Below, one piece after another: positions 1,900 to 64,000 of a stretch of DNA of 64,000 nucleotides. This DNA comes from Naegleria gruberi (Eukaryota). The translations under genes and the position numbers were made by a program. Under the pieces are notes generated by a model. That model searched no databases and was not told the origin of the DNA. It saw only the letters and a program-made list of their open reading frames with translations. The stretch lies in NCBI GenBank assembly GCA_000004985.1, contig GG738871.1, one strand, 5' to 3'. Numbering within the stretch: position 1 is the first letter of the stretch; every line of letters starts with the position of its first letter.

Positions 1900-4800
1900 N
1901 NNNNNNNNNNNNNNNNNNNNNNNNNNNNNNNNNNNNNNNNNNNNNNNNNNNNNNNNNNNNNNNNNNNNNNNNNNNNNNNNNNNNNNNNNNNNNNNNNNNN
2001 NNNNNNNNNNNNNNNNNNNNNNNNNNNNNNNNNNNNNNNNNNNNNNNNNNNNNNNNNNNNNNNNNNNNNNNNNNNNNNNNNNNNNNNNNNNNNNNNNNNN
2101 NNNNNNNNNNNNNNNNNNNNNNNNNNNNNNNNNNNNNNNNNNNNNNNNNNNNNNNNNNNNNNNNNNNNNNNNNNNNNNNNNNNNNNNNNNNNNNNNNNNN
2201 NNNNNNNNNNNNNNNNNNNNNNNNNNNNNNNNNNNNNNNNNNNNNNNNNNNNNNNNNNNNNNNNNNNNNNNNNNNNNNNNNNNNNNNNNNNNNNNNNNNN
2301 NNNNNNNNNNNNNNNNNNNNNNNNNNNNNNNNNNNNNNNNNNNNNNNNNNNNNNNNNNNNNNNNNNNNNNNNNNNNNNNNNNNNNNNNNNNNNNNNNNNN
2401 NNNNNNNNNNNNNNNNNNNNNNNNNNNNNNNNNNNNNNNNNNNNNNNNNNNNNNNNNNNNNNNNNNNNNNNNNNNNNNNNNNNNNNNNNNNNNNNNNNNN
2501 NNNNNNNNNNNNNNNNNNNNNNNNNNNNNNNNNNNNNNNNNNNNNNNNNNNNNNNNNNNNNNNNNNNNNNNNNNNNNNNNNNNNNNNNNNNNNNNNNNNN
2601 NNNNNNNNNNNNNNNNNNNNNNNNNNNNNNNNNNNNNNNNNNNNNNNNNNNNNNNNNNNNNNNNNNNNNNNNNNNNNNNNNNNNNNNNNNNNNNNNNNNN
2701 NNNNNNNNNNNNNNNNNNNNNNNNNNNNNNNNNNNNNNNNNNNNNNNNNNNNNNNNNNNNNNNNNNNNNNNNNNNNNNNNNNNNNNNNNNNNNNNNNNNN
2801 NNNNNNNNNNNNNNNNNNNNNNNNNNNNNNNNNNNNNNNNNNNNNNNNNNNNNNNNNNNNNNNNNNNNNNNNNNNNNNNNNNNNNNNNNNNNNNNNNNNN
2901 NNNNNNNNNNNNNNNNNNNNNNNNNNNNNNNNNNNNNNNNNNNNNNNNNNNNNNNNNNNNNNNNNNNNNNNNNNNNNNNNNNNNNNNNNNNNNNNNNNNN
3001 NNNNNNNNNNNNNNNNNNNNNNNNNNNNNNNNNNNNNNNNNNNNNNNNNNNNNNNNNNNNNNNNNNNNNNNNNNNNNNNNNNNNNNNNNNNNNNNNNNNN
3101 NNNNNNNNNNNNNNNNNNNNNNNNNNNNNNNNNNNNNNNNNNNNNNNNNNNNNNNNNNNNNNNNNNNNNNNNNNNNNNNNNNNNNNNNNNNNNNNNNNNN
3201 NNNNNNNNNNNNNNNNNNNNNNNNNNNNNNNNNNNNNNNNNNNNNNNNNNNNNNNNNNNNNNNNNNNNNNNNNNNNNNNNNNNNNNNNNNNNNNNNNNNN
3301 NNNNNNNNNNNNNNNNNNNNNNNNNNNNNNNNNNNNNNNNNNNNNNNNNNNNNNNNNNNNNNNNNNNNNNNNNNNNNNNNNNNNNNNNNNNNNNNNNNNN
3401 NNNNNNNNNNNNNNNNNNNNNNNNNNNNNNNNNNNNNNNNNNNNNNNNNNNNNNNNNNNNNNNNNNNNNNNNNNNNNNNNNNNNNNNNNNNNNNNNNNNN
3501 NNNNNNNNNNNNNNNNNNNNNNNNNNNNNNNNNNNNNNNNNNNNNNNNNNNNNNNNNNNNNNNNNNNNNNNNNNNNNNNNNNNNNNNNNNNNNNNNNNNN
3601 NNNNNNNNNNNNNNNNNNNNNNNNNNNNNNNNNNNNNNNNNNNNNNNNNNNNNNNNNNNNNNNNNNNNNNNNNNNNNNNNNNNNNNNNNNNNNNNNNNNN
3701 NNNNNNNNNNNNNNNNNNNNNNNNNNNNNNNNNNNNNNNNNNNNNNNNNNNNNNNNNNNNNNNNNNNNNNNNNNNNNNNNNNNNNNNNNNNNNNNNNNNN
3801 NNNNNNNNNNNNNNNNNNNNNNNNNNNNNNNNNNNNNNNNNNNNNNNNNNNNNNNNNNNNNNNNNNNNNNNNNNNNNNNNNNNNNNNNNNNNNNNNNNNN
3901 NNNNNNNNNNNNNNNNNNNNNNNNNNNNNNNNNNNNNNNNNNNNNNNNNNNNNNNNNNNNNNNNNNNNNNNNNNNNNNNNNNNNNNNNNNNNNNNNNNNN
4001 NNNNNNNNNNNNNNNNNNNNNNNNNNNNNNNNNNNNNNNNNNNNNNNNNNNNNNNNNNNNNNNNNNNNNNNNNNNNNNNNNNNNNNNNNNNNNNNNNNNN
4101 NNNNNNNNNNNNNNNNNNNNNNNNNNNNNNNNNNNNNNNNNNNNNNNNNNNNNNNNNNNNNNNNNNNNNNNNNNNNNNNNNNNNNNNNNNNNNNNNNNNN
4201 NNNNNNNNNNNNNNNNNNNNNNNNNNNNNNNNNNNNNNNNNNNNNNNNNNNNNNNNNNNNNNNNNNNNNNNNNNNNNNNNNNNNNNNNNNNNNNNNNNNN
4301 NNNNNNNNNNNNNNNNNNNNNNNNNNNNNNNNNNNNNNNNNNNNNNNNNNNNNNNNNNNNNNNNNNNNNNNNNNNNNNNNNNNNNNNNNNNNNNNNNNNN
4401 NNNNNNNNNNNNNNNNNNNNNNNNNNNNNNNNNNNNNNNNNNNNNNNNNNNNNNNNNNNNNNNNNNNNNNNNNNNNNNNNNNNNNNNNNNNNNNNNNNNN
4501 NNNNNNNNNNNNNNNNNNNNNNNNNNNNNNNNNNNNNNNNNNNNNNNNNNNNNNNNNNNNNNNNNNNNNNNNNNNNNNNNNNNNNNNNNNNNNNNNNNNN
4601 NNNNNNNNNNNNNNNNNNNNNNNNNNNNNNNNNNNNNNNNNNNNNNNNNNNNNNNNNNNNNNNNNNNNNNNNNNNNNNNNNNNNNNNNNNNNNNNNNNNN
4701 NNNNNNNNNNNNNNNNNNNNNNNNNNNNNNNNNNNNNNNNNNNNNNNNNNNNNNNNNNNNNNNNNNNNNNNNNNNNNNNNNNNNNNNNNNNNNNNNNNNN

Positions 4801-7086
4801 NNNNNNNNNNNNNNNNNNNNNNNNNNNNNNNNNNNNNNNNNNNNNNNNNNNNNNNNNNNNNNNNNNNNNNNNNNNNNNNNNNNNNNNNNNNNNNNNNNNN
4901 NNNNNNNNNNNNNNNNNNNNNNNNNNNNNNNNNNNNNNNNNNNNNNNNNNNNNNNNNNNNNNNNNNNNNNNNNNNNNNNNNNNNNNNNNNNNNNNNNNNN
5001 NNNNNNNNNNNNNNNNNNNNNNNNNNNNNNNNNNNNNNNNNNNNNNNNNNNNNNNNNNNNNNNNNNNNNNNNNNNNNNNNNNNNNNNNNNNNNNNNNNNN
5101 NNNNNNNNNNNNNNNNNNNNNNNNNNNNNNNNNNNNNNNNNNNNNNNNNNNNNNNNNNNNNNNNNNNNNNNNNNNNNNNNNNNNNNNNNNNNNNNNNNNN
5201 NNNNNNNNNNNNNNNNNNNNNNNNNNNNNNNNNNNNNNNNNNNNNNNNNNNNNNNNNNNNNNNNNNNNNNNNNNNNNNNNNNNNNNNNNNNNNNNNNNNN
5301 NNNNNNNNNNNNNNNNNNNNNNNNNNNNNNNNNNNNNNNNNNNNNNNNNNNNNNNNNNNNNNNNNNNNNNNNNNNNNNNNNNNNNNNNNNNNNNNNNNNN
5401 NNNNNNNNNNNNNNNNNNNNNNNNNNNNNNNNNNNNNNNNNNNNNNNNNNNNNNNNNNNNNNNNNNNNNNNNNNNNNNNNNNNNNNNNNNNNNNNNNNNN
5501 NNNNNNNNNNNNNNNNNNNNNNNNNNNNNNNNNNNNNNNNNNNNNNNNNNNNNNNNNNNNNNNNNNNNNNNNNNNNNNNNNNNNNNNNNNNNNNNNNNNN
5601 NNNNNNNNNNNNNNNNNNNNNNNNNNNNNNNNNNNNNNNNNNNNNNNNNNNNNNNNNNNNNNNNNNNNNNNNNNNNNNNNNNNNNNNNNNNNNNNNNNNN
5701 NNNNNNNNNNNNNNNNNNNNNNNNNNNNNNNNNNNNNNNNNNNNNNNNNNNNNNNNNNNNNNNNNNNNNNNNNNNNNNNNNNNNNNNNNNNNNNNNNNNN
5801 NNNNNNNNNNNNNNNNNNNNNNNNNNNNNNNNNNNNNNNNNNNNNNNNNNNNNNNNNNNNNNNNNNNNNNNNNNNNNNNNNNNNNNNNNNNNNNNNNNNN
5901 NNNNNNNNNNNNNNNNNNNNNNNNNNNNNNNNNNNNNNNNNNNNNNNNNNNNNNNNNNNNNNNNNNNNNNNNNNNNNNNNNNNNNNNNNNNNNNNNNNNN
6001 NNNNNNNNNNNNNNNNNNNNNNNNNNNNNNNNNNNNNNNNNNNNNNNNNNNNNNNNNNNNNNNNNNNNNNNNNNNNNNNNNNNNNNNNNNNNNNNNNNNN
6101 NNNNNNNNNNNNNNNNNNNNNNNNNNNNNNNNNNNNNNNNNNNNNNNNNNNNNNNNNNNNNNNNNNNNNNNNNNNNNNNNNNNNNNNNNNNNNNNNNNNN
6201 NNNNNNNNNNNNNNNNNNNNNNNNNNNNNNNNNNNNNNNNNNNNNNNNNNNNNNNNNNNNNNNNNNNNNNNNNNNNNNNNNNNNNNNNNNNNNNNNNNNN
6301 NNNNNNNNNNNNNNNNNNNNNNNNNNNNNNNNNNNNNNNNNNNNNNNNNNNNNNNNNNNNNNNNNNNNNNNNNNNNNNNNNNNNNNNNNNNNNNNNNNNN
6401 NNNNNNNNNNNNNNNNNNNNNNNNNNNNNNNNNNNNNNNNNNNNNNNNNNNNNNNNNNNNNNNNNNNNNNNNNNNNNNNNNNNNNNNNNNNNNNNNNNNN
6501 NNNNNNNNNNNNNNNNNNNNNNNNNNNNNNNNNNNNNNNNNNNNNNNNNNNNNNNNNNNNNNNNNNNNNNNNNNNNNNNNNNNNNNNNNNNNNNNNNNNN
6601 NNNNNNNNNNNNNNNNNNNNNNNNNNNNNNNNNNNNNNNNNNNNNNNNNNNNNNNNNNNNNNNNNNNNNNNNNNNNNNNNNNNNNNNNNNNNNNNNNNNN
6701 NNNNNNNNNNNNNNNNNNNNNNNNNNNNNNNNNNNNNNNNNNNNNNNNNNNNNNNNNNNNNNNNNNNNNNNNNNNNNNNNNNNNNNNNNNNNNNNNNNNN
6801 NNNNNNNNNNNNNNNNNNNNNNNNNNNNNNNNNNNNNNNNNNNNNNNNNNNNNNNNNNNNNNNNNNNNNNNNNNNNNNNNNNNNNNNNNNNNNNNNNNNN
6901 NNNNNNNNNNNNNNNNNNNNNNNNNNNNNNNNNNNNNNNNNNNNNNNNNNNNNNNNNNNNNNNNNNNNNNNNNNNNNNNNNNNNNNNNNNNNNNNNNNNN
7001 NNNNNNNNNNNNNNNNNNNNNNNNNNNNNNNNNNNNNNNNNNNNNNNNNNNNNNNNNNNNNNNNNNNNNNNNNNNNNNNNNNNNNN
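1900..7086. other. Large assembly gap (5187 N) lying inside the NHL-repeat gene
   Basis: Continuous n run. The ORF-track entries 1889..7540(-) and 1892..7102(+) are translations of N and are not real. Confidence 0.99.
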
Positions 7087-10563: not shown

Positions 10564-10613
10564 NNNNNNNNNNNNNNNNNNNNNNNNNNNNNNNNNNNNN
10601 NNNNNNNNNNNNN
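10564..10613. other. Assembly gap (50 N)
   Basis: Run of 50 n in the intergenic region. Confidence 0.99.
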
Positions 10614-25113: not shown

Positions 25114-25163
25114 NNNNNNNNNNNNNNNNNNNNNNNNNNNNNNNNNNNNNNNNNNNNNNNNNN
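25114..25163. other. Assembly gap (50 N) that truncates a 5S rRNA gene
   Basis: Run of 50 n. Confidence 0.99.
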
Positions 25164-32694: not shown

Positions 32695-33281
32695 TACACA
32701 TTACCTCAGAAAACTCTCAATAAAATTATTAAGACTTGATAATTATCAAGTAGTAAGTATTTTTCTTGTATAAAGTGAACTGAAAAACTAATTGAAATAC
32801 TGTCTGAATAAAATATTGGAAACAAGAATAAAGTAGACAAATTAATCAACAACCAAAATATCCATTAATAAAACTAATTTATTGCACTTTCAAAATTGAA
32901 AACAATCTCTCACTATCAGCAATCATACTGCGACAAAGATGTTCCGCGAGGAGCAACATATGGTTTGGATGGTTCGATTGCTGTGTTATGGGCCATTCCT
33001 ACCAGTTGTTCTTTTTTCGTTAATTCAATTTATTCAACTATAAGGTTTTATAATTGTTGCAAAGAACAATCACTGGCCATCAATTTTGGCAGCTTTTCTC
33101 AAATTGCAAAGAAAAGTTCATTCGCAACTACAGTAAGTTTTAAAGCAAAACAACTTAAAAAAAATTACAGTTTTCCCGCGCTTCTTATTGTGTTGCAACA
33201 GCCACTGTTTCAATTTTTTATTATTTACTTTATACATTTCATACAAATTAAATAATCGTAAAAAGTAGCAATAGAGTGAGA

Positions 33282-34904
33282 ATGACTAGTATTTTGGAAG
33301 AATCAAGTAAATTGTTTAAGGAACGTAAATATGATGAATGTATTGAATTGATAAGAGATTATTATCCTTCCTTGAGCAGTCCTGAAGATTATAAGAATAC
33401 AGCCTTGTTGTACATGACCAAGGGTTTATGTTCCTTTAATAAGGTTGCAATGAATGGAGGATGTTCTTCCGATGATCATGTGGATTATTTGCTTACTTCC
33501 ATTGGCGATTTTCAACAAGTTGTGGATTACTTTGGTACTTACTGGGAAGAGTCCATGAAGGGAGAAGAATTTGAAACCTTGGTAGGAAAAACTGGTTTTA
33601 TGGACGCTTTTATATGTAAAATTAAGGCTGGATACTTGATCGGAAAGGCCTTGTTGGAAGCTTATAATTTTAATAATGAAATTGATATTGGTAAAGGGAT
33701 TCATGCCACTTCTCTCACTATTGACCATTTGAACAAGTTGAAGGAGGCTCAAGAGCACATCACCAAGGATAGAAAGGCTCCATTTGAGTTGATTGCCCAG
33801 TGTTATTTAATCAAGGGACAATGCCAAACAATCTGGGGTCTTTATCTTGAGGCTGGAGAATCTCTTAATACTTATTTAAAGATCTTGGAAGATGGAAATG
33901 ATTTGAGTGAGGAAAAGAAACAATCTGGGTTAGCAATCGGATATCATCATATGGGTAATTTGAATTATCTTACAGGAAATAATGAAATTGCCATCCAATA
34001 TTATTCCAAATCAATTGATAGATGCGAGAATTTAATGATGATTGACTTTAAACAACACCATGTTGATCATGTTATTGAATCACATTTAAAGAGAGCCAAG
34101 GTATTAGTAAGCTTTATTCTTGAACTCGCTGACCAATCAACTGTCGATGAGGAAAGAATTCATGAATGCTCTGAAATGGTTTGTGAGGATTATGAGTTTG
34201 TCATTAGAAATAGAAAGGAGAAGAACCATCTTTACAAGCTCAAATATTACAGATTCATTTTGAACATGATTGAAAAGCTTGGACACTACATATCTGAGGA
34301 AGACTTGGCACACTTTTATGAAAGAGCCTACTCTTTAATTAATGACTGCTTGGAATACTATGAGAACAATAGCAAATTATATCAAGATTTGGCCAAGTGT
34401 ACCTCCAAGATTGAAGATGAAGACAATTTGGACACAGCTCTGGAACTTTATGACACAAGTATCAAACTAATGACTCTTAATAATCGTGAACTTTCTTTAC
34501 CAATGAAAAAGTTTATTGCTCGTTCCCATTTCGAAAGGGGTGTAATTTATGTACAAAAGGAACAATTAGAAAAGGCTCTCCACGAATTTGATTTGTCGCT
34601 AAATTTCTCTCCAACCTTCCCAGATTCTCTCTATAATAGAGGTATTGTGAAAACTCATTTAGGACAATTAGAAAGTGCCAATGATGATTTTAAAAAGGCT
34701 ACCAACTTCAACCACCAGGATTTGGAAGCATACAGACAGTGGTTTCTCAATCTCAGAAAGGCAGGCAGCAAGAAGGAAGCAGAAAAGATTGCTGAGCATG
34801 TCTTTGAAAAACTTTCCAATGATGAAACACCTCTCGATTTTTACCTTGCAAAGATTGAATCTGGAGAATTAGCAATTGAGCAATCCAAGATTAGAGAATT
34901 GTAA
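33282..34904 (+). CDS. TPR-repeat protein (about 540 aa)
   Basis: The track ORF starts at GTG 33276 and the first ATG is at 33282. C-terminal TPR-like repeats (ALHEFDLSLNFSPTFPDSLYNRGIVKTHLGQLESANDDFKKATNFNHQDLEAYRQW). Confidence 0.6.
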   Translation: MTSILEESSKLFKERKYDECIELIRDYYPSLSSPEDYKNTALLYMTKGLCSFNKVAMNGGCSSDDHVDYLLTSIGDFQQVVDYFGTYWEESMKGEEFETLVGKTGFMDAFICKIKAGYLIGKALLEAYNFNNEIDIGKGIHATSLTIDHLNKLKEAQEHITKDRKAPFELIAQCYLIKGQCQTIWGLYLEAGESLNTYLKILEDGNDLSEEKKQSGLAIGYHHMGNLNYLTGNNEIAIQYYSKSIDRCENLMMIDFKQHHVDHVIESHLKRAKVLVSFILELADQSTVDEERIHECSEMVCEDYEFVIRNRKEKNHLYKLKYYRFILNMIEKLGHYISEEDLAHFYERAYSLINDCLEYYENNSKLYQDLAKCTSKIEDEDNLDTALELYDTSIKLMTLNNRELSLPMKKFIARSHFERGVIYVQKEQLEKALHEFDLSLNFSPTFPDSLYNRGIVKTHLGQLESANDDFKKATNFNHQDLEAYRQWFLNLRKAGSKKEAEKIAEHVFEKLSNDETPLDFYLAKIESGELAIEQSKIREL

Positions 34905-35012
34905 ATTTTAAAATAATACGATATTTCTTTTTCTCTTTAGAGAACTTTCATTGTAATATGCATATTTTTAAATCAAAAAAATAGCTCGACTTGGTTCCTG
35001 ATATTGTTAACC

Positions 35013-36323
35013 ATGAAAAATACCATTTCCATGCAGACAATTGGAGTTCAACAAACAGTTGATTATGTTGCTCCAACAAAATTTGAAACTCTCCAACTCA
35101 ACCTTCCCAACTCACATACAACAACAACAGATGTGAGGAGTATCCATTGTGGTGGTACGTTTTTTGTTGTGAGACCATGGTCATCAAATCGAAAATACTT
35201 TGCGGAGGAGCTCTATGTAAAGTTTACTACTCCATCACCTAGAGGATGCACACATTTACAATCCTTGCTAGGTTCTTCTTCATCATCTGATAGTAGTGAA
35301 AGCTCTGATACAAACCCATTTTATTTATTAGATTATCGATCTGCAATTGACAGGTTAGATTTCGTAAAATGTTATCAAATTGAGAATGTTTATTGTACAC
35401 AGGCATACATTATATTACAAATGGAGAATAATTTGCTGTTGGGATTTGGTCACGATACAGAACATGCATTTTATTGCAAGAAATTTATGGATGATGGAAT
35501 TAGAGAGATTACGTGTGGACCACTCTCTTTTCAAATTCTTGTTTGTGGAAATGATGGAATGGGTTATTATTTCAGAGTGGATGCTCCTACATTTTTAGAG
35601 GATGAAAAGTTCCATTTGGATTTCACTAAAAGAAAATATATCACGGCTGCAGTGAGTGGAAGATCAACATTTGTAGTTTATGAAAATGAGGATGGATCTC
35701 ATCACATTTTGAGTCACGGCGACGATCAATTTCGTATACAGAGTGGTCAACCTTCTGAAGATAAATTCTCTGAATTGGAAACACCATTTGATGGAAGAAG
35801 AATCCATCAAATTAAATGTGGATATTTTCACACTTGTGTTTTATTAGAAGATGGAGATGTTTACACATGTGGATACAATGCATATGGACAATGTGGAGTC
35901 CCAGGCCCAGATCAAAATTTCATCAAAGTTATCTTTCCATCCTTTCCATTACAACCAACCAATGATCATTTTCCTGCTGTTTATGAAGGTAGTTCAACAA
36001 GTAATCACAAATTCCAACCCACACGAATTATTTGCTCATCAATTGCCACCTTATTCTGCAATAAGGATGGATTTATGATTATTGGTGATCCAGTAACTGC
36101 CTTTTCTCCAAAATATCAATTCTTTCCTTCTGTTGATTGTATCTATTATGCTTTTAATCAGAAGATGAAGAGTAGCCTTTATACCCAAACTGTTGAATGT
36201 GGTGGATGGCATGTTGTAATTTACAACAAGAAGGTTGTGGAAAGTAAAAGTATGATATACTTTTATGATAATTTGAAAAAGATAATTACTGAAACAAGTT
36301 TTTCAGATATTCAAATAAAATAG
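35013..36323 (+). CDS. RCC1-like repeat protein (about 436 aa)
   Basis: The track ORF starts at TTG 35004 and the first ATG is at 35013. RCC1-type repeat signatures (CGYFHTCVLLEDGDVYTCGYNAYGQCGVPG, ...VCGNDGMGYYF). Confidence 0.5.
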   Translation: MKNTISMQTIGVQQTVDYVAPTKFETLQLNLPNSHTTTTDVRSIHCGGTFFVVRPWSSNRKYFAEELYVKFTTPSPRGCTHLQSLLGSSSSSDSSESSDTNPFYLLDYRSAIDRLDFVKCYQIENVYCTQAYIILQMENNLLLGFGHDTEHAFYCKKFMDDGIREITCGPLSFQILVCGNDGMGYYFRVDAPTFLEDEKFHLDFTKRKYITAAVSGRSTFVVYENEDGSHHILSHGDDQFRIQSGQPSEDKFSELETPFDGRRIHQIKCGYFHTCVLLEDGDVYTCGYNAYGQCGVPGPDQNFIKVIFPSFPLQPTNDHFPAVYEGSSTSNHKFQPTRIICSSIATLFCNKDGFMIIGDPVTAFSPKYQFFPSVDCIYYAFNQKMKSSLYTQTVECGGWHVVIYNKKVVESKSMIYFYDNLKKIITETSFSDIQIK

Positions 36324-36435: not shown

Positions 36436-37605
36436 ATGGCATTCGAAGATTTAACCACAATCGTTTTGGATGTTGGTTCATTTCGTGTTAGAGCAGGAAT
36501 TGCAGGAGATGATGAGCCAAAAATTAATATTCCAACTCTTGCATCTCGGAATCCAAAATTTAAATCTACAAAATCTACAAATTTGGAATCCAAATTGACG
36601 AATAATGAACAAGATGATGCTGATACTTATTTGAAAAGGGAATATTTAATTGGATCGGAAATAATTGATTATGAAATAATGAATAATGATGGGAAATTAG
36701 AAATCACAAGTCCATTTGGTGATGGAAAGGAAATTAATGTTGATGTAATGGAAAGGATTTGGAGATTTACATTTGAACAATTAAAAGTTGAGCCAGAGGA
36801 GTGTCCATTAGTGATGATTGAACATGCATTGACTGAAAAGAGAGTTAGAGAGACAAAGATGCAAATCATGTTTGAGTCATTTGGGATTCCAATGTATTAT
36901 TCTGGATATGATTCAGTGATGAGTATGTATGCGAGTGGTAGAGTGACAGGAATTACAGTGAATATGGGATATGAGGAAACTCAAATTGTTCCAGTTTTTG
37001 AAGGATTTGCATTACCTCATGCAATAATGACAATGAATTTTGGAGGACGACAATTGACTGAATACTTAGCTCAAAAATTGAAATTGGATGGGCATAATTT
37101 AACTAATGATCAAGTGAGTCAATTGAAAGAGAAATTGTGTCGTGTAGCTGAGGATTATGATGAAGAATTGAGAACAATAGACAGTGCATCTTTTGAACTA
37201 CCTGATGGAAATGTTATTCAAATTAAGAATGAACGATTGACATGTCCAGAAATTTACTTTAACCCACAAATTTTTCAATCCCAAGAAATTGGTCCAATAC
37301 ACCTTCAAACCTATTCTTCAATTCAGAAGTGTGACATTGATGGAAGAAGATTTTGGTACTCGAACATTCTCCTCACAGGAGCTAGCTCATGTTTCCCTAA
37401 AATGACAGAGAGATTAACCAAGGAAATGGTCTTCTTGTCACCTTCCTCAATGAAAGTCAAGGTGATTGGTGCACCAGAGAGAAATATTCAGGCATGGTTG
37501 GGAGGCTCTATATTGGGATCCATTTCCGCCTCTCAAACGATGTTCATCACACGAGAGGAGTATGAAGAAGTTGGTCCAGTTCTTGTTCATAGGAGGTGTT
37601 TCTAA
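36436..37605 (+). CDS. Actin-related protein (Arp family, divergent; 389 aa)
   Basis: ATG at 36436. Actin-fold hallmarks: N-terminal IVLDVGSFRVRAGIAGDDEPK (compare actin [21 protein letters not shown]), and C-terminal ...ITREEYEEVGPVLVHRRCF (compare actin SKQEYDESGPSIVHRKCF). Confidence 0.8.
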   Translation: MAFEDLTTIVLDVGSFRVRAGIAGDDEPKINIPTLASRNPKFKSTKSTNLESKLTNNEQDDADTYLKREYLIGSEIIDYEIMNNDGKLEITSPFGDGKEINVDVMERIWRFTFEQLKVEPEECPLVMIEHALTEKRVRETKMQIMFESFGIPMYYSGYDSVMSMYASGRVTGITVNMGYEETQIVPVFEGFALPHAIMTMNFGGRQLTEYLAQKLKLDGHNLTNDQVSQLKEKLCRVAEDYDEELRTIDSASFELPDGNVIQIKNERLTCPEIYFNPQIFQSQEIGPIHLQTYSSIQKCDIDGRRFWYSNILLTGASSCFPKMTERLTKEMVFLSPSSMKVKVIGAPERNIQAWLGGSILGSISASQTMFITREEYEEVGPVLVHRRCF

Positions 37606-39684: not shown

Positions 39685-41121
39685 ATGTCAACCAGTGTTA
39701 CCATAACCTCGAATCCAACAACAACATCTACAACCCAACAACCTATTCGAAAGCGTTCGACTGCTTCTCGAGATGGAAGTGGAGGTATCGAAGTGAATAC
39801 ATGTTGTGGCTCCGTCTCCATGTCCAATACCAAATGTCTGGTTGTAGTTGTTCTCCTTCTCAATATTATTGCATTCTGTGTACTGCTGGCTCTCTTAATT
39901 GATATTTATATTGGAAAAGTCAACCAAAACTTGGAATCCATCACCAAGAGAGGTGATGCTCTATTATATTCTGAAATTCTTTCTTGTAGTTCGAGGATGG
40001 CTGCTTCTTCCTCCAATGAGAATATTACCAAATTCTTCCTCGACAGATATGATGAATATCATCCAAAATATATGGCTCTGATGAATGAAATCATTAATTT
40101 GGTTCCTGCAAGTGCAGTTGGTCAAATTCAAAGTGAAACCAATGAGGCCAACAATATTACAAGGGATGAATCTGTTGTAATGGAGGAAGAGGCCATTAGT
40201 TTAGTAAAGGCAGGTGAAAAGGATGATGCATTGGAAATTTTAGATGGTTCTGAATATGCATCTGAAAAGGAGGATTATGATTCTGATTTAAAGGGATATA
40301 CAGATTATATTCGTACTGAAGAATTGAAAAAGGATGCTCAGACCAATGATAGAACATTGGCTTGTTTGATTCTCATATGTTGTTTGATGGCATTAGTTTT
40401 ACCTGTTGTGGTCATTTCACTGGTGGCCTCCTTCAGTAGAGAAAAGCAAGAACGTGCCAAATTGGAAAGAGCCAAAGCAATTGTTTTGAATGATACAATG
40501 GCAGATCCAAAACTTAAAGAGCTTTTCAAAAAGCATTGTGAGCAAGAGTTCAGTATGGAGAATTTCCTCCTCTTGGAAAGAATTGCTGAATACAAGAGTT
40601 TGTGTGAAAAGAGTTTTGACATTCAAGTATTCCTCTATGATTCTAGTTCTGATGAAGTCTCAACAAATTCTGGAAACACAACCAAGACAAGTGTTTCAAC
40701 ATCAACATCAAATTCTTATTCCAAGGATCCAAGCAAAAAGCCATCAGGCTACAATGAGAAGGATTTGGAATTGGTTGAAAAGCAAAAGAGAGATTTGGCC
40801 CAGAATGTCTTTGACCAATTCTTGAACATTAATGGTATCATGCCTGTCAATGTGAATAAGAAGATTGCTGATGATATTCTGCTTGAAATTCAAACAGCAA
40901 GCAATAGTTTCCAAAATTTAACTTCTCCAACTGATATGGAACTGGGTTCAATTGGTGCTAACACTATCCTCTTGTCAGATTCATTATTTGATGTTCTGGA
41001 GAATGAGGCTCAAATTGTAATGTTAGATACTCACACTAGGTTCAAACAATCACTTGCATTCCAAAAGAAAATGAAAATCGACAGCATTAAGCAAAAGATG
41101 AATAATAATAAGAAAAAGTAG
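39685..41121 (+). CDS. Membrane-anchored RGS-domain protein (478 aa): two predicted TM helices followed by an RGS domain
   Basis: ATG at 39685. TM helices CLVVVVLLLNIIAFCVLLALLIDIYIG and LACLILICCLMALVLPVVVISLVASF. RGS signature KELFKKHCEQEFSMENFLLLERIAEYKSL... Confidence 0.8.
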   Translation: MSTSVTITSNPTTTSTTQQPIRKRSTASRDGSGGIEVNTCCGSVSMSNTKCLVVVVLLLNIIAFCVLLALLIDIYIGKVNQNLESITKRGDALLYSEILSCSSRMAASSSNENITKFFLDRYDEYHPKYMALMNEIINLVPASAVGQIQSETNEANNITRDESVVMEEEAISLVKAGEKDDALEILDGSEYASEKEDYDSDLKGYTDYIRTEELKKDAQTNDRTLACLILICCLMALVLPVVVISLVASFSREKQERAKLERAKAIVLNDTMADPKLKELFKKHCEQEFSMENFLLLERIAEYKSLCEKSFDIQVFLYDSSSDEVSTNSGNTTKTSVSTSTSNSYSKDPSKKPSGYNEKDLELVEKQKRDLAQNVFDQFLNINGIMPVNVNKKIADDILLEIQTASNSFQNLTSPTDMELGSIGANTILLSDSLFDVLENEAQIVMLDTHTRFKQSLAFQKKMKIDSIKQKMNNNKKK

Positions 41122-41226: not shown

Positions 41227-42567
41227 ATGGAAAGAAGAGGCAACAATAAAAAGTTGACAACCAACAACATTAAACCTTCATTCAAAAAAAACATGTCGAA
41301 GTCGCTTGTTGTTGTTGTTTCGTTCACAGCTGTTGTGTTACTCCTTGCATGCAGTGTATCTGTGATTACATGTTTGTATCCATCCCAAGTTGTTGATATC
41401 GAGAATTGGTATCTGACCCTTCCAATTGGTGATGTTAAAGACCCTACCGACATTTATCAACCAACATTAGCAACCTATTCCATTGATCCATACTTTGTTG
41501 TTGGACCAAATAATAATTCTATTCGTTTTCGTTCAGTCATTTTCAATGAAAGTGTTACAACTGTTGGTTCAAAATATCCAAGATCAGAACTTAGAGAAAT
41601 GGACCCAATCAATCCAGCCAAAGTCAAGATTTCATGGAATAACACAGTTGGTGTCCATACCATGATTATTGACCAAGCCATCACTCACTTGCCAATCACA
41701 AGAGACAGAGTCATAGCAGGTCAAATCCACGATGATAATGAATTCATCTTTACCATCACATTATCTGGCACAACTCTTTACATTAATGCTGCCAATAAGG
41801 CAACTGCTAAGGTCATTACCAAAACCTATCAATTAGGTACAATCTTTAGACTCAAAATTGAAGCACTCAATGGTACTACCAATTTCTACTATAATGACAT
41901 GTCCACTCCAATTTATACTCATCCATTGGTATTTAAGAATTCATACTTTAAGGCAGGTTGTTATGCTCAATCAAATTGTACTGTGGAAGGATCATTGTGT
42001 GGAGATTCAAATAATTATGCAGAAGTGTTGATTTACAATTTGACTACTACTCATGATTATTCATCATCACCATCGTACGTAAATAATTCATCATCCTCAT
42101 CTAATGGAACAATAATTAATAATAATAATGGAACAATTAATTCCAATTCAACCAATAATAATGGTACAATAATTAATAATAATAATGGAACCACTCCGAA
42201 TAATAACAACAATGGTACTATCAATAATAACAATGGAACAATCAATTCAAATTCTACAAATAATTCAACCAATAATAACAATGGAACAATAATTAATAAT
42301 GGTACAACTCCCGATAGTAATAACAATAGCACTAATAATAATAATGGTACAATTATTGATAATGGAGGCTCATCCAATAATAATTCAACAAATACTCCAA
42401 AGGCTTCAACTTCTAATCGGGTTGTTGTGAATATGGCTACTAGTTCTTTCATTCCTCATCATTCATTTGCTAATATTCTGCTCCGATTCATCCTAATGCC
42501 AATACTAGTTTCCTACATTGTCTATTCGCTGGCTTTCCATGATAGTAGCATCTTTCCCACCAATTAA
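41227..42567 (+). CDS. PL7-family (alginate-lyase-2-like) polysaccharide lyase domain protein (446 aa). It has an N-terminal signal/anchor, an Asn/Thr-rich repetitive stalk, and a C-terminal hydrophobic segment (possible GPI signal or TM)
   Basis: ATG at 41227. All three PL7 signatures are present in the right order: RSELRE (R-x-E-L-R), IAGQIHDDN (QIH) and YFKAGCYAQS (YFKAGxYxQ). Hydrophobic N-terminus LVVVVSFTAVVLLLACSV. Stalk of N(n)GTI(N/I) repeats. C-terminal FANILLRFILMPILVSYIVYSLAF. Confidence 0.75.
   Translation: MERRGNNKKLTTNNIKPSFKKNMSKSLVVVVSFTAVVLLLACSVSVITCLYPSQVVDIENWYLTLPIGDVKDPTDIYQPTLATYSIDPYFVVGPNNNSIRFRSVIFNESVTTVGSKYPRSELREMDPINPAKVKISWNNTVGVHTMIIDQAITHLPITRDRVIAGQIHDDNEFIFTITLSGTTLYINAANKATAKVITKTYQLGTIFRLKIEALNGTTNFYYNDMSTPIYTHPLVFKNSYFKAGCYAQSNCTVEGSLCGDSNNYAEVLIYNLTTTHDYSSSPSYVNNSSSSSNGTIINNNNGTINSNSTNNNGTIINNNNGTTPNNNNNGTINNNNGTINSNSTNNSTNNNNGTIINNGTTPDSNNNSTNNNNGTIIDNGGSSNNNSTNTPKASTSNRVVVNMATSSFIPHHSFANILLRFILMPILVSYIVYSLAFHDSSIFPTN
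42090..42400 (+). repeat. Coding minisatellite: imperfect tandem 18-30-nt units (aataataataatggaacaat...) encoding the Asn-rich NnGTI(N) stalk of the PL7-like protein
   Basis: Seen directly. The antisense ORF 42057..42452(-) is a by-product of the repeat. Confidence 0.7.
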
Positions 42568-43235
42568 TTAATTTAAAAATCATAATTATTTTTTAAAAAT
42601 AAAATATTAATCAAAAAAGTGTGATATTATCTTACACTCTTAAATAATATTATATTGTAATGTATTGCTCTGAGTAGTAATCAAATAGAAAGAATAGGTG
42701 CTCCGAACCAGCCGATGAAATATCTCCTCTGAGAGCACTTCTACTCCTCCACAAGGACATTTGGCTAGCCAAATCACAAGTACCAAAGACAATTTCCAGC
42801 ACAATTTCACATTTAGTGCATTCAGTCTCGGTAATAGACAATGTTTAGGAAAGAACTTTGCTCTCTTGGAAGCAACAATGATGTTACAAAAGTACGAACT
42901 CAAATTGTTAAATGATGAAAGTAAGGATCCATTGCACCAATAGACCTACTAATTTGAAAATTCAAAGTCAACTATTGCCTCTCAATGAAAAATGATAATT
43001 ATCTTTTCCTTTTTAAAAACCACAATATTTAACGTTTTACTATTAGAATTCTTGACAATATTGTCAAGAATGTTAAAACTATCGGAATTATTCTAGTAAC
43101 CATTGATCAGACCTACTGTTAAGGTAATGTTATAGTAAGGCATTTATGCAAGATTACTAGATGACTAGAATAATTCTTTTAGAACTTTGAATTTAATCTG
43201 GGGTGGATTTGAAAAATTAAATTTTATATTATACA

Positions 43236-62054: not shown

Positions 62055-64000
62055 ATGCCTCAAAAACAACATCAAGGCGCCAACTACAACAACAACAATA
62101 CAATAATGAGGAGTTGTTTGTCGAATCGGAGAGGAATTGTTTTACTTGCTTTTTTAGTGATGGTGTTCATGATGAGTACATCAGCAACAGTAGCAGCCAT
62201 TCCTTCATCACCATCGGCAGCATCGGATGTTCTTCTTTATACAACACTGGAGGCTGAGTCACCAAATAATACAAATCCTAACGATCACAATACAATAGAT
62301 CCATCATATAATTATCCTATTTGGATTCCTTGGGCTATTTGTGGAGTATTATTCTTTGTTATTTTCATCATTACTTCAATTGCTGTTTGTTTATTTCAAG
62401 ATAGGAGAGAAAAGAGTTTTATTGCTTTGGTTACTTCAATTGTGGGAATTTCTCTGGTTGTATTTTCAATCTTTGTTGTTCCTGTTGATATCTTTAATGT
62501 TTCTCAAACTTTTGATCCAAAGGAAAATTCCCTCGTCATTAAGATTCTCTATTATAGTATTTATTTAATATTATTGATTTTTGGCTCTGTCATTATTCCA
62601 TTTGCTTATTTCTGGTATGAAGAAGATCCAAAATTAGGAGAGAATGAAGATGATGATGACAAGTATTCTCTATCTTCAAAGAAACAACAACCATCAAGAG
62701 CAAGTGGATTGGGATGGAGATTGTTTCACACTATCAAATTTACACTCTTTACATTCATTGCAGGTATTTTGATTATCATTATGGGTCTTGTCATGTCTGC
62801 TATTAGTGGAACTGTTGCTGATAAGAATAGTGTTACTGATTGGTTGAAACAATTGGTAGATGTCGAACATTTTGGAGATAGAGCTATTAGATTCATTGTT
62901 GGTTGTTTGGCTGTTGTGGGTTGTTTTGGATTCAATATTTATACAGCCTATGGTCTCTCTGCTTTACCAATTGGATTAATGAAGAGAAAATATCTCACCT
63001 ACAAGGATGAAAATGTTGTGGATAGAAGGGCTGATGAAGTTGATGAAGAAATTGACCTCCTTCAAAAGAAATATAGAATGAAGGGAACTTCCATGAATAG
63101 AGAAGATCAAAAGAAGTATGACAGACTCAGACAAGAAAAGACAGAACTCGAAAATACCTCAATTAGAATTGAAAGATCCAAGAAGAGTATCATTGCCAAG
63201 TTGGAACCATGCATGTATCCATTTAAATTATTGATTGGATTTGGTATTTTGGTGGTATGTATTAATTTTTATTGAATGTTTTTTTAATGATTTATTGAAT
63301 TAATTGTTTTATATTGTAATCAAAACAGGTAATCATTTTCCTTCTAATTTCTCTACTCATCAACTTGATTTATAGAACTGTTACCAGCAAGTGTGGTATT
63401 GCTTGTGGATTTGTCACTGAAGAAAATTGTTATTTCAATCCTTTGGATTTATTGCTCACCTACAGTTCCATTATTTTCCCAATTGACTATATTATTTTAG
63501 CTTTAATTATTTGCTTATTTATTTGGGCAAGTATGGTTTCACTTTCAACTATTGGATTGAGATTCTTGTGTGTTAAATTATACAAGTTAAAGGTCAGATC
63601 AACTGTTCCACAAGGTTTATTAACTTCTGGAATTTTCCTCATGTTTATCATGTTGGCAACCTCCTTCATGTTACCAAGTTTTGCTCCAGTCTATACTACC
63701 TTTGGTTCACAAAAATATCAAGATTCAACTGGAGCTTGGAAGCAATGTGCATTGGCTGCCTTCAACTTTACAGAACATAGTAATAATTCTCACTCCTTAT
63801 TTAATCATCCTGAAATTCCATCTCTATTTGGCGATTTGGATGGAAATTACACTAACGGAAATAACACTAACACCACAAGACCTTGTTACATGACAGAACT
63901 ATCTCAGAATGTTAACAGCGTGACAATTGGTGTTCCTGTTTTCAGTATTATTTTCTACTTTGAAAATTGGTTATTTGTACTGTGCTTTATTATTGGGTTC
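62055..64000 (+). CDS. LMBR1-domain multi-pass membrane protein (LMBD1/LMBR1-like), partial at the 3' end. Exon 1 is 62055..63254, a 74-nt intron (GTATGT...ACAG) follows, and exon 2 runs from 63329 to beyond the window end
   Basis: ATG at 62055. Multiple TM helices separated by a charged coiled-coil loop (KYRMKGTSMNREDQKKYDRLRQEKTELEN), typical of the LMBR1 family. In-frame continuation after the intron (VIIFLLISLLINLIY...) with further TM helices to position 64000. Confidence 0.6.

Follow-up and report, generated by a model that had tools for sequence, protein, structure and literature searches.

A 64,000-nucleotide (nt) stretch of Naegleria gruberi DNA (assembly GCA_000004985.1, contig GG738871.1), called the window below, carries an open reading frame (ORF) for a protein of polysaccharide lyase family 7 (PL7). 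Taken as a whole, the analysis makes it likely that this gene specifies an active PL7 lyase of bacterial origin, which was acquired once, was then duplicated, and is secreted or anchored. A sequence-only reading of the window had proposed a horizontally acquired PL7 alginate-lyase-like domain, set in a eukaryotic membrane or glycosylphosphatidylinositol (GPI) protein of a phagotrophic protist; N. gruberi is indeed such a host.

The ORF encodes a PL7 catalytic domain

When the translated ORF was compared with Pfam-A, a sole match was obtained, to the Alginate_lyase2 profile PF08787 (E=1.5e-30; 107.2 bits against a curated cut-off of 29.7). This match is complete, covering profile positions 1-225 of 225 and spanning amino acids (aa) 56-276. 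The profile search had been chosen beforehand as the test of PL7 identity, which it bears out. Searching the Protein Data Bank (PDB) with phmmer gave as top match the polyguluronate lyase 1uai_A (AlyPG, E=5.4e-48), with further matches to AlgAT5 (5zqi_A, E=1.9e-44), AlyQ (5xnr_A, E=1.8e-25) and A1-II' (2cws, E=2.6e-09). The features of the gene are the following.

41227..42567, + strand: longest ORF of the PL7 gene, a single exon of 446 codons (446 aa) plus stop, uninterrupted
41293..42567, + strand: deposited coding sequence of 424 aa, from Met23 (XP_002676505.1 model)
41293..41370, + strand: predicted signal peptide or signal anchor MSKSLVVVVSFTAVVLLLACSVSVIT (hydropathy, paralogue leaders)
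41371..42063, + strand: PL7 (Alginate_lyase2) catalytic domain, aa 49-279, predicted beta-jelly roll (Pfam, 1uai, AlphaFold2, Foldseek)
41581..41598, + strand: RSELRE motif, aa 119-124; R119 opposite AlyPG R72
41722..41730, + strand: QIH motif, aa 166-168; Q166 and H168 opposite AlyPG Q117 and H119
41944..41973, + strand: YFKAGCYAQS motif, aa 240-249; Y246 opposite AlyPG Y195, equivalent to A1-II' Y284
42064..42426, + strand: low-complexity stalk rich in Asn, Ser and Thr, aa 280-400 (composition, sequons, tandem repeats)
42466..42537, + strand: C-terminal hydrophobic segment FANILLRFILMPILVSYIVYSLAF, aa 414-437, followed by HDSSIFPTN (hydropathy)

Residues 4-223 of 1UAI align with aa 49-276 of the ORF, and by homology to 1UAI residue 4 the mature domain begins at about Cys49. 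In the residue alignment, R72, Q117, H119 and Y195 of AlyPG stand opposite R119, Q166, H168 and Y246; we take these AlyPG residues and their A1-II' counterparts to be the catalytic ones described in the literature. PDB entries for mutants of A1-II' bear the titles H191N/Y284F. Across an alignment of 59 homologues, 22 columns were invariant, and they include all motif residues (R, E, L, R and E among them). The conserved regions of PL7 are RxExR, QxH and YxKAGxYxQ (PMC8618178). All three, already recognized in the sequence-only reading, are present as RSELRE, QIH and YFKAGCYAQ (240-248).

The AlphaFold2 model of aa 45-285 is all-beta, with a mean predicted local distance difference test score (pLDDT) of 95.7 and a predicted template modelling score (pTM) of 0.91. 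When this fold was compared with the PDB by Foldseek, 1uai came first (template modelling (TM) score 0.88/0.95, root mean square deviation 1.6 A, 38% identity), and the top 43 PDB matches were all PL7 structures. The motif and profile match is far beyond chance, and the membership of the ORF product in family PL7 can be regarded as practically certain. By analogy with the characterized enzymes, the gene would encode a catalytically competent lyase.

The ORF translation is 100% identical, over 95% of the ORF length, to N. gruberi XP_002676505.1 (also EFC43761.1, D2VH95_NAEGR and NAEGRDRAFT_68135), which was deposited as "predicted protein". This protein has been public since the 2010 genome, and a precomputed PF08787 match accompanies it in the protein collection that was searched. 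In the deposited model, translation begins at an internal methionine, Met23 (nt 41293). Judged from the sequence, Met23 is more likely to be the start than Met1 of the ORF, because a short n-region and an ordinary signal peptide then result, as in the paralogues described below. No second PL7 copy was found by tblastn of the window.

The nearest judged relatives are bacterial

Homologues were searched in a database that includes nr and EukProt, and the best 120 matches of either search were considered. With the catalytic domain alone as query, no match outside Naegleria exceeded 50% identity. The matches that bear a name are bacterial (Candidatus Levybacteria, Roizmanbacteria, Daviesbacteria, Gottesmanbacteria, Saccharopolyspora, Amycolatopsis and Streptomyces). 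Most of the best 120 are nameless; every one that was named, or whose genomic context was inspected, proved bacterial, save the Naegleria copies and three genes on eukaryote-like contigs.

Contexts of this kind include that of P0010, which shares a GC-rich operon with genes for a sugar-nucleotide dehydrogenase (UDPG_MGDP_dh) and for beta-helix proteins as well as a chondroitinase-B-like gene, and that of L029, where a gene combining dockerin and PL7 stands among many PMT_2 glycosyltransferases. The closest verified bacterial homologue, P0121 from the metagenome-assembled genome GCA_023245525.1, is directly downstream of an IS200/IS605-type Y1 transposase, which suggests that this PL7 subfamily is associated with mobile DNA in bacteria. 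The two genes are adjacent on L008 (4264-4926 and 5001-5885), and the arrangement was seen in two independent assemblies. P0003 of Sanguibacter antarcticus (524 aa) has two tandem PL7 domains with a PVET-repeat linker, and because of this tandem arrangement its score in the full-length search was inflated.

On these grounds a bacterial origin of the Naegleria PL7 genes is highly probable, and the candidate horizontal acquisition put forward in the sequence-only reading is upheld, given the bacterial nature of the nearest judged relatives and the integration of the gene into the host genome (see below). The other explanation of a PL7 gene in an amoeba is vertical descent from an ancient eukaryotic PL7 that was lost in most lineages, with no transfer at all. 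Eukaryotic PL7 genes do exist: they have been reported in the red alga Pyropia, in fungi and in an oomycete (PMC5436490), and the eukaryote-like organism of a Joint Genome Institute (JGI) sample, 3300062347, has three PL7s of the same subfamily as the Naegleria ones. However, the solved fungal and red-algal enzymes (Paradendryphiella PL7A/C, Trichoderma PL7A, Pyropia PyAly) are only 12-22% identical to the Naegleria domain, against 38-41% for the bacterial 1uai and 5zqi, from which it follows that the Naegleria genes do not come from those lineages. The 3300062347 proteins, for their part, lie at bacterial distances, group with the Naegleria copies in only 56 of 300 bootstraps and do not have the Naegleria insertions. 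N. gruberi was moreover the sole named eukaryote among the best 120 of either search; other Naegleria species did not appear there either, the genomes of N. fowleri, N. lovaniensis, Willaertia and Acrasis not having been directly searched. The domain thus falls outside any eukaryote-wide vertical clade, and we consider descent without transfer very improbable.

The Naegleria clade sits on a long branch, its mean distance to the bacterial sequences being 0.88, compared with 0.50 among the bacterial sequences themselves. In neighbour-joining (NJ) trees, P0010_d2 appeared as its sister in 65% of the bootstraps. This placement was rejected as long-branch attraction, because P0010_d2 is a divergent domain, the N-terminal one of the two in a bacterial protein. 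A giant-virus or phage donor was also considered and is unsupported: IMG/VR contigs reach only 39% identity, below the bacteria. When JGI metagenome contigs were scanned with the Naegleria-type alignment, nothing above 47% identity was found.

The gene is part of the host genome

With bacterial genes as the closest relatives outside Naegleria, and with assembly gaps present in the scaffold, the sequence might be thought to be a bacterial contaminant or an assembly artefact and not a Naegleria gene at all. The locus itself speaks against this. The ORF is in continuous sequence on a 417,575-bp N. gruberi scaffold, no run of N occurs from 25164 to the window end at 64000, and the PL7 locus is gap-free. 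Upstream, an RGS-like gene (39685-41121, + strand, 478 aa) ends 105 nt before the ORF; downstream, a PF12044 metallopeptidase gene lies on the opposite strand. Genes for a TPR protein (33276-34904), an RCC1-repeat protein (35004-36323) and actin (36436-37605, E=2e-91) are near the ORF, and genes for BTB and LRR proteins are also found around it.

Furthermore, base composition and codon usage are those of the host. The DNA of the catalytic domain has a GC content of 0.356 and a GC content at third codon positions (GC3) of 0.290. Its relative synonymous codon usage (RSCU) correlates with that of the other window genes at r=0.83, inside the mutual range of those genes (0.62-0.94), while two bacterial homologues gave r=-0.60 and 0.52. 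The leader, stalk and tail of the protein are of eukaryotic style, and paralogues occur on two other scaffolds of about 0.5 Mb. In addition, an independent sample, ERR1078381, has an identical P0004, as well as P0235, on AT-rich contigs. Contamination is therefore dismissed and, for practical purposes, refuted; the earlier statement that the gene is integrated and is not a contaminant finds full agreement in the eukaryotic neighbours, the host-like codons and the paralogues on two other large scaffolds.

Some further observations concern the surroundings of the gene. The protein encoded at 39685-41121 may be RGS-like and membrane-bound: it has two hydrophobic segments and a weak, split RGS match that falls short of the Pfam cut-off (E=0.001). 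Runs of N are located in the window at 1074-1123, 1900-7086 (5.2 kb), 10564-10613 and 25114-25163, none of them near the PL7 gene. The window starts, at 1-402, with about 67 copies of a telomere-type repeat, CCCAAA (TTTGGG on the other strand). The repeat is found again at 1124-1385, after a gap of 50 N, with a short interstitial copy at 1678-1695. The PL7 gene would thus be subtelomeric, about 41 kb from an apparent chromosome end, and the duplicated block of telomere repeats may be a scaffolding artefact.

About 200 nt past the PL7 stop, a C-terminal fragment of a cytochrome P450 is encoded at 42761-42943 (+ strand), readable back to about 42716. It contains the haem-binding FSLGNRQCLG and matches PF00067 with E=2.3e-8 at profile positions 392-443 of 462, with in-frame stops upstream. 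This orphan fragment is probably a pseudogene relic and suggests a past rearrangement at the PL7 locus.

Paralogues of the gene in Naegleria

Two paralogues of the window copy are annotated on the two other scaffolds, NAEGRDRAFT_66146 (P0004, 299 aa) and NAEGRDRAFT_71919 (P0005, 247 aa). The run ERR1078381 (assembly ERZ929261, PRJEB11402) is labelled as a metagenome and holds an N. gruberi-like genome. It includes P0004, identical to NAEGRDRAFT_66146, on an AT-rich contig (L002 238-1137), and P0235 (291 aa, L003 3161-4036), which is 96% identical to P0005 over the aligned domain and falls with it in one 90%-identity cluster. A fourth paralogue, P0002 (295 aa, L001 250-1137), is 72% identical to P0004 over the aligned domain and is absent among the annotated NEG-M proteins. 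The deposited P0005 ends with ...SFVEIVYGNI, whereas P0235 runs on through NYAEVQIYNVSTTH to a hydrophobic tail. Judging from this comparison, the NEG-M gene model of NAEGRDRAFT_71919 is probably wrong at its 3' end, leaving P0005 truncated at the C-terminus.

The four copies have a common layout, consisting of a leader peptide, the PL7 domain, a linker (short in the paralogues) and a hydrophobic tail. Over the aligned columns of the catalytic domain, the paralogues are 56-64% identical to the window copy; in the search with this domain alone as query, the Naegleria-type proteins ranked first, with 57-65% identity. The copies share two insertions of two residues and one of a single residue, which at least 98% of the 229 other domains lack. 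The trees were NJ distance trees only, built on 216 well-occupied columns; with 237 domains, 197 of 200 bootstraps united the Naegleria-type sequences in one clade, and with 110 domains, 300 of 300 did so. The single clade, together with the shared insertions, points to one acquisition followed by duplication.

The copies differ at one motif, P0004 having QVH (AGQVHD) where the other Naegleria copies have QIH. As a usual rule, QVH goes with polymannuronate (polyM) and QIH with polyguluronate (polyG) or mixed polymers (polyMG), with exceptions (PMC8618178). By analogy, this is only a hint that the paralogues may differ in block preference and that the family may have diversified in substrate.

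PL7 genes of a eukaryote-like organism

JGI sample 3300062347 contains three PL7 genes, P0134, P0153 and P0130, whose products of 239-243 aa are 48-49% identical to the window copy. Their positions are given here.

L006 8001-8720: PL7 gene on a JGI 3300062347 contig
L007 8001-8732: PL7 gene on a JGI 3300062347 contig
L009 5930-6661: PL7 gene on a JGI 3300062347 contig

The contigs (Ga0606064_0015, _0121 and _0653; 147, 55 and 12.6 kb) are gene-dense and have a GC content of 0.34. The neighbouring genes encode protein kinase, F-box, AP-5 sigma (a weak match), RNF157-like RING, RGS, START and LIM proteins, as well as guanylate cyclase, metacaspase, Kelch, RRM and PAQR proteins, that is, domains typical of cellular eukaryotes. 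From this domain content, a giant-virus origin of the contigs appears unlikely. Rfam and transfer RNA scans of these contigs returned nothing. An alpha/beta-hydrolase of the same organism has only three relatives in 5.8 billion proteins.

The three PL7 proteins, which have a leader and no tail, are of soluble type. They form a clade of their own in 297 of 300 bootstraps, and their distance to the bacterial sequences is 0.52, close to that among bacteria. The simplest reading is that another protist acquired genes of the same bacterial subfamily separately and more recently. Synteny was also considered, as TPR, RGS and P450 genes are near PL7 in both the window and these contigs; it was rejected, tblastx matching the PL7 genes only.

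Leader, stalk and hydrophobic tail

The leader, the Asn-rich stalk and the hydrophobic tail noticed in the sequence-only reading are each present in the ORF. The N-terminal hydrophobic stretch extends over aa 23-50, with Kyte-Doolittle values up to 2.7. By hydropathy, and with either Met1 or Met23 as start, a putative h-region covers aa 26-48, with the small residues A-C-S before Val44. The stalk (aa 280-400) comprises 48 Asn among 121 residues (40%), 20 Ser and 18 Thr, and has 19 N-x-S/T sequons. Imperfect tandem repeats of 21, 18 and 12 nt occur in its DNA. Such a long Asn-rich stalk is found only in the window copy, the paralogues being devoid of it.

At the C-terminus, a hydrophobic segment of 14-24 residues is kept in all four Naegleria-type copies, while the linker and tail sequences are otherwise unalignable among them. 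This retention in every copy, despite sequences that can no longer be aligned, argues that membrane tethering is under selection. The tails of P0002, P0004 and P0235 reach the very C-terminus, which is the classic pattern of a GPI-attachment signal. In the window copy, the hydrophobic aa 414-437 are followed by nine polar residues, HDSSIFPTN, also unique among the four. From its sequence, this tail could be either a transmembrane anchor or a GPI-attachment signal. Nothing usable was found in the literature on GPI in Naegleria.

Conversely, the protein might be a soluble secreted or lysosomal digestive enzyme, whose C-terminal hydrophobic stretch plays no anchoring role. The homologues of bacteria and of the 3300062347 organism are short, soluble-type and tailless, and the tail of the window copy is not at the extreme C-terminus, as this explanation would have it. 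Against it stand the conservation of the hydrophobic segment in four copies out of four and the long, sequon-rich stalk, which is typical of surface-displayed proteins. A soluble enzyme appears improbable to us, and membrane tethering is the option that we favour with reasonable, although not high, confidence. Of the "membrane or GPI protein" of the sequence-only reading, the leader and the tail hold; the anchoring itself is an in silico prediction, and the tail of this copy is atypical for GPI.

Proposed route, substrate and role

The following scheme can be proposed. A bacterium would have passed a PL7 gene to the N. gruberi lineage in one transfer, and the gene would then have given rise to at least four copies and been fitted to the eukaryotic secretory pathway. 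The signal peptide would direct the protein into the endoplasmic reticulum, and the Asn-rich stalk with its 19 sequons would probably be N-glycosylated. The C-terminal segment, as a single-pass anchor or after being swapped for a GPI anchor, would tether the enzyme to the plasma membrane on its outer face. Since this face would become the phagosome lumen once prey is engulfed, the active site would look first to the medium, then to the phagosome. From its homology to AlyPG and A1-II', the beta-jelly-roll domain would cleave polyuronate by beta-elimination: R119 and Q166 would neutralize the C6 carboxylate, with H168 and Y246 as base and acid. In this way, the enzyme could loosen the capsule or the biofilm matrix that prey bacteria, for example Pseudomonas or Azotobacter, build from alginate.

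Several points weigh against parts of this scheme. The nine polar residues behind the tail would make an unusual GPI signal, and on sequence grounds a single-pass anchor fits better. With Met1 as the true start, the N-terminal segment could serve as a type II anchor that is not cleaved. The NJ trees, which are distance trees only, resolve neither a donor lineage nor a sister group of the Naegleria clade, and the 3300062347 PL7s are as close to the window copy as the bacterial ones (48-49%), so that a eukaryote-to-eukaryote route is formally possible. Finally, the sequence does not fix the substrate, as the QIH/QVH rule has exceptions (PMC8618178) and PL7 includes glucuronan lyases (7nde).

With regard to the substrate, the likeliest is alginate, with G- or MG-blocks preferred: the motif reads QIH, and among solved structures a polyguluronate lyase comes closest. 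Reasoning by analogy in this manner, we lean only slightly towards it. An active PL7 lyase whose natural substrate is not alginate, and which acts instead on beta-1,4-glucuronan or on another bacterial, fungal or algal polyuronate, would be compatible with the exceptions to motif-based rules just mentioned and with a soil and freshwater habitat rich in polyuronates. Trichoderma parareesei PL7A (7nde), with a TM score of 0.77, is such a glucuronan lyase. Nevertheless, it is only 22% identical to the Naegleria domain, and the closest characterized relatives are by a wide margin alginate lyases (1uai, AlgAT5 and AlyQ; E from 5e-48 to 2e-25), which makes a non-alginate substrate rather unlikely.

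N. gruberi is an amoeboflagellate and a bacterivore of soil and fresh water. Pseudomonas and Azotobacter are the best-known bacterial producers of alginate, which protects Pseudomonas biofilms and Azotobacter cysts as one of their main matrix materials. Because these producers share the habitat of N. gruberi, the clearing of matrix is the most economical role for the enzyme; a nutritional role would need downstream genes for alginate catabolism. A role in grazing is put forward tentatively, as a possibility somewhat short of even. More doubtful is an extended picture in which GPI- or membrane-anchored "biofilm knives" with complementary G- and M-block preferences (the QIH copies and the one QVH copy) would be displayed at the surface, lining the membrane and the phagosome and stripping alginate capsules from grazing-resistant mucoid Pseudomonas and Azotobacter cysts. 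If this picture were true, it would be a predator's counter-adaptation taken from the prey's own domain of life, with at least one other protist lineage having made a parallel acquisition.

Significance

PL7 is a well-studied family, and the value of the present case is ecological and evolutionary, not mechanistic. Protists commonly gain carbohydrate-active enzymes by transfer, Diplonema being an example (PMC10161547). The borrowing of a bacterial enzyme by a protist is here credible and not unprecedented, and no new enzyme class is involved. It is one more clear example of a carbohydrate-active enzyme from bacteria that received eukaryotic targeting signals once it had been transferred. A review only speculates on alginate lyase in amoebae and gives no gene (PMC10761080). 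The full-text literature on Naegleria or amoebae combined with alginate lyase, PL7, CAZy or the accessions yielded no paper discussing these genes, the list of horizontal gene transfers in the N. gruberi genome paper lying outside this search. The way in which amoebae graze through alginate matrices is poorly understood, and the PL7 family supplies specific genes with which the question can be tested in an amoeba that is a tractable model.

Comparison with known PL7 systems

The nearest solved system is AlyPG/ALY-1 of Corynebacterium sp. (1UAI), which we take to belong to CAZy PL7 subfamily 3. The whole domain aligns with it, and R72, Q117, H119 and Y195 are conserved, as is the NC...C pair past YFKAG. 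However, AlyPG is a bare secreted bacterial domain, whereas the Naegleria protein adds a leader, a 121-residue stalk and a tail, and also differs by an additional Cys in YFKAGCY and by three small insertions that are specific to its clade. AlgAT5 (5ZQI) and AlyQ (5XNR) have the same motifs and the same fold (TM score 0.84-0.85). Both are bacterial, and AlyQ bears CBM32 modules, unlike the Naegleria protein, in which no carbohydrate-binding module is present.

Outside Naegleria, the nearest sequences are the PL7s of Microgenomates of the candidate phyla radiation (Levybacteria, Roizmanbacteria) and of Actinobacteria (Saccharopolyspora indica, Amycolatopsis), with 44-50% identity over the full domain. 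They differ in their prokaryotic contexts and often carry an N-terminal anchor, dockerin or F5/8 type C modules. None of these genes can be named as the donor.

The eukaryotic enzymes PyAly of Pyropia yezoensis, PL7A and PL7C of Paradendryphiella salina and PL7A of Trichoderma parareesei resemble the Naegleria protein in family, fold and eukaryotic nuclear encoding. In contrast, the low identity given above was obtained from structure-based alignment, none of these enzymes is described as membrane-anchored in PMC5436490, and they occur in an alga and in fungi rather than in an amoeba that feeds on bacteria. Judged by sequence identity, these known eukaryotic PL7s appear to be other PL7 lineages with separate origins. 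What is distinctive in N. gruberi is the fourfold expansion of the family and the membrane-anchor architecture that it acquired.

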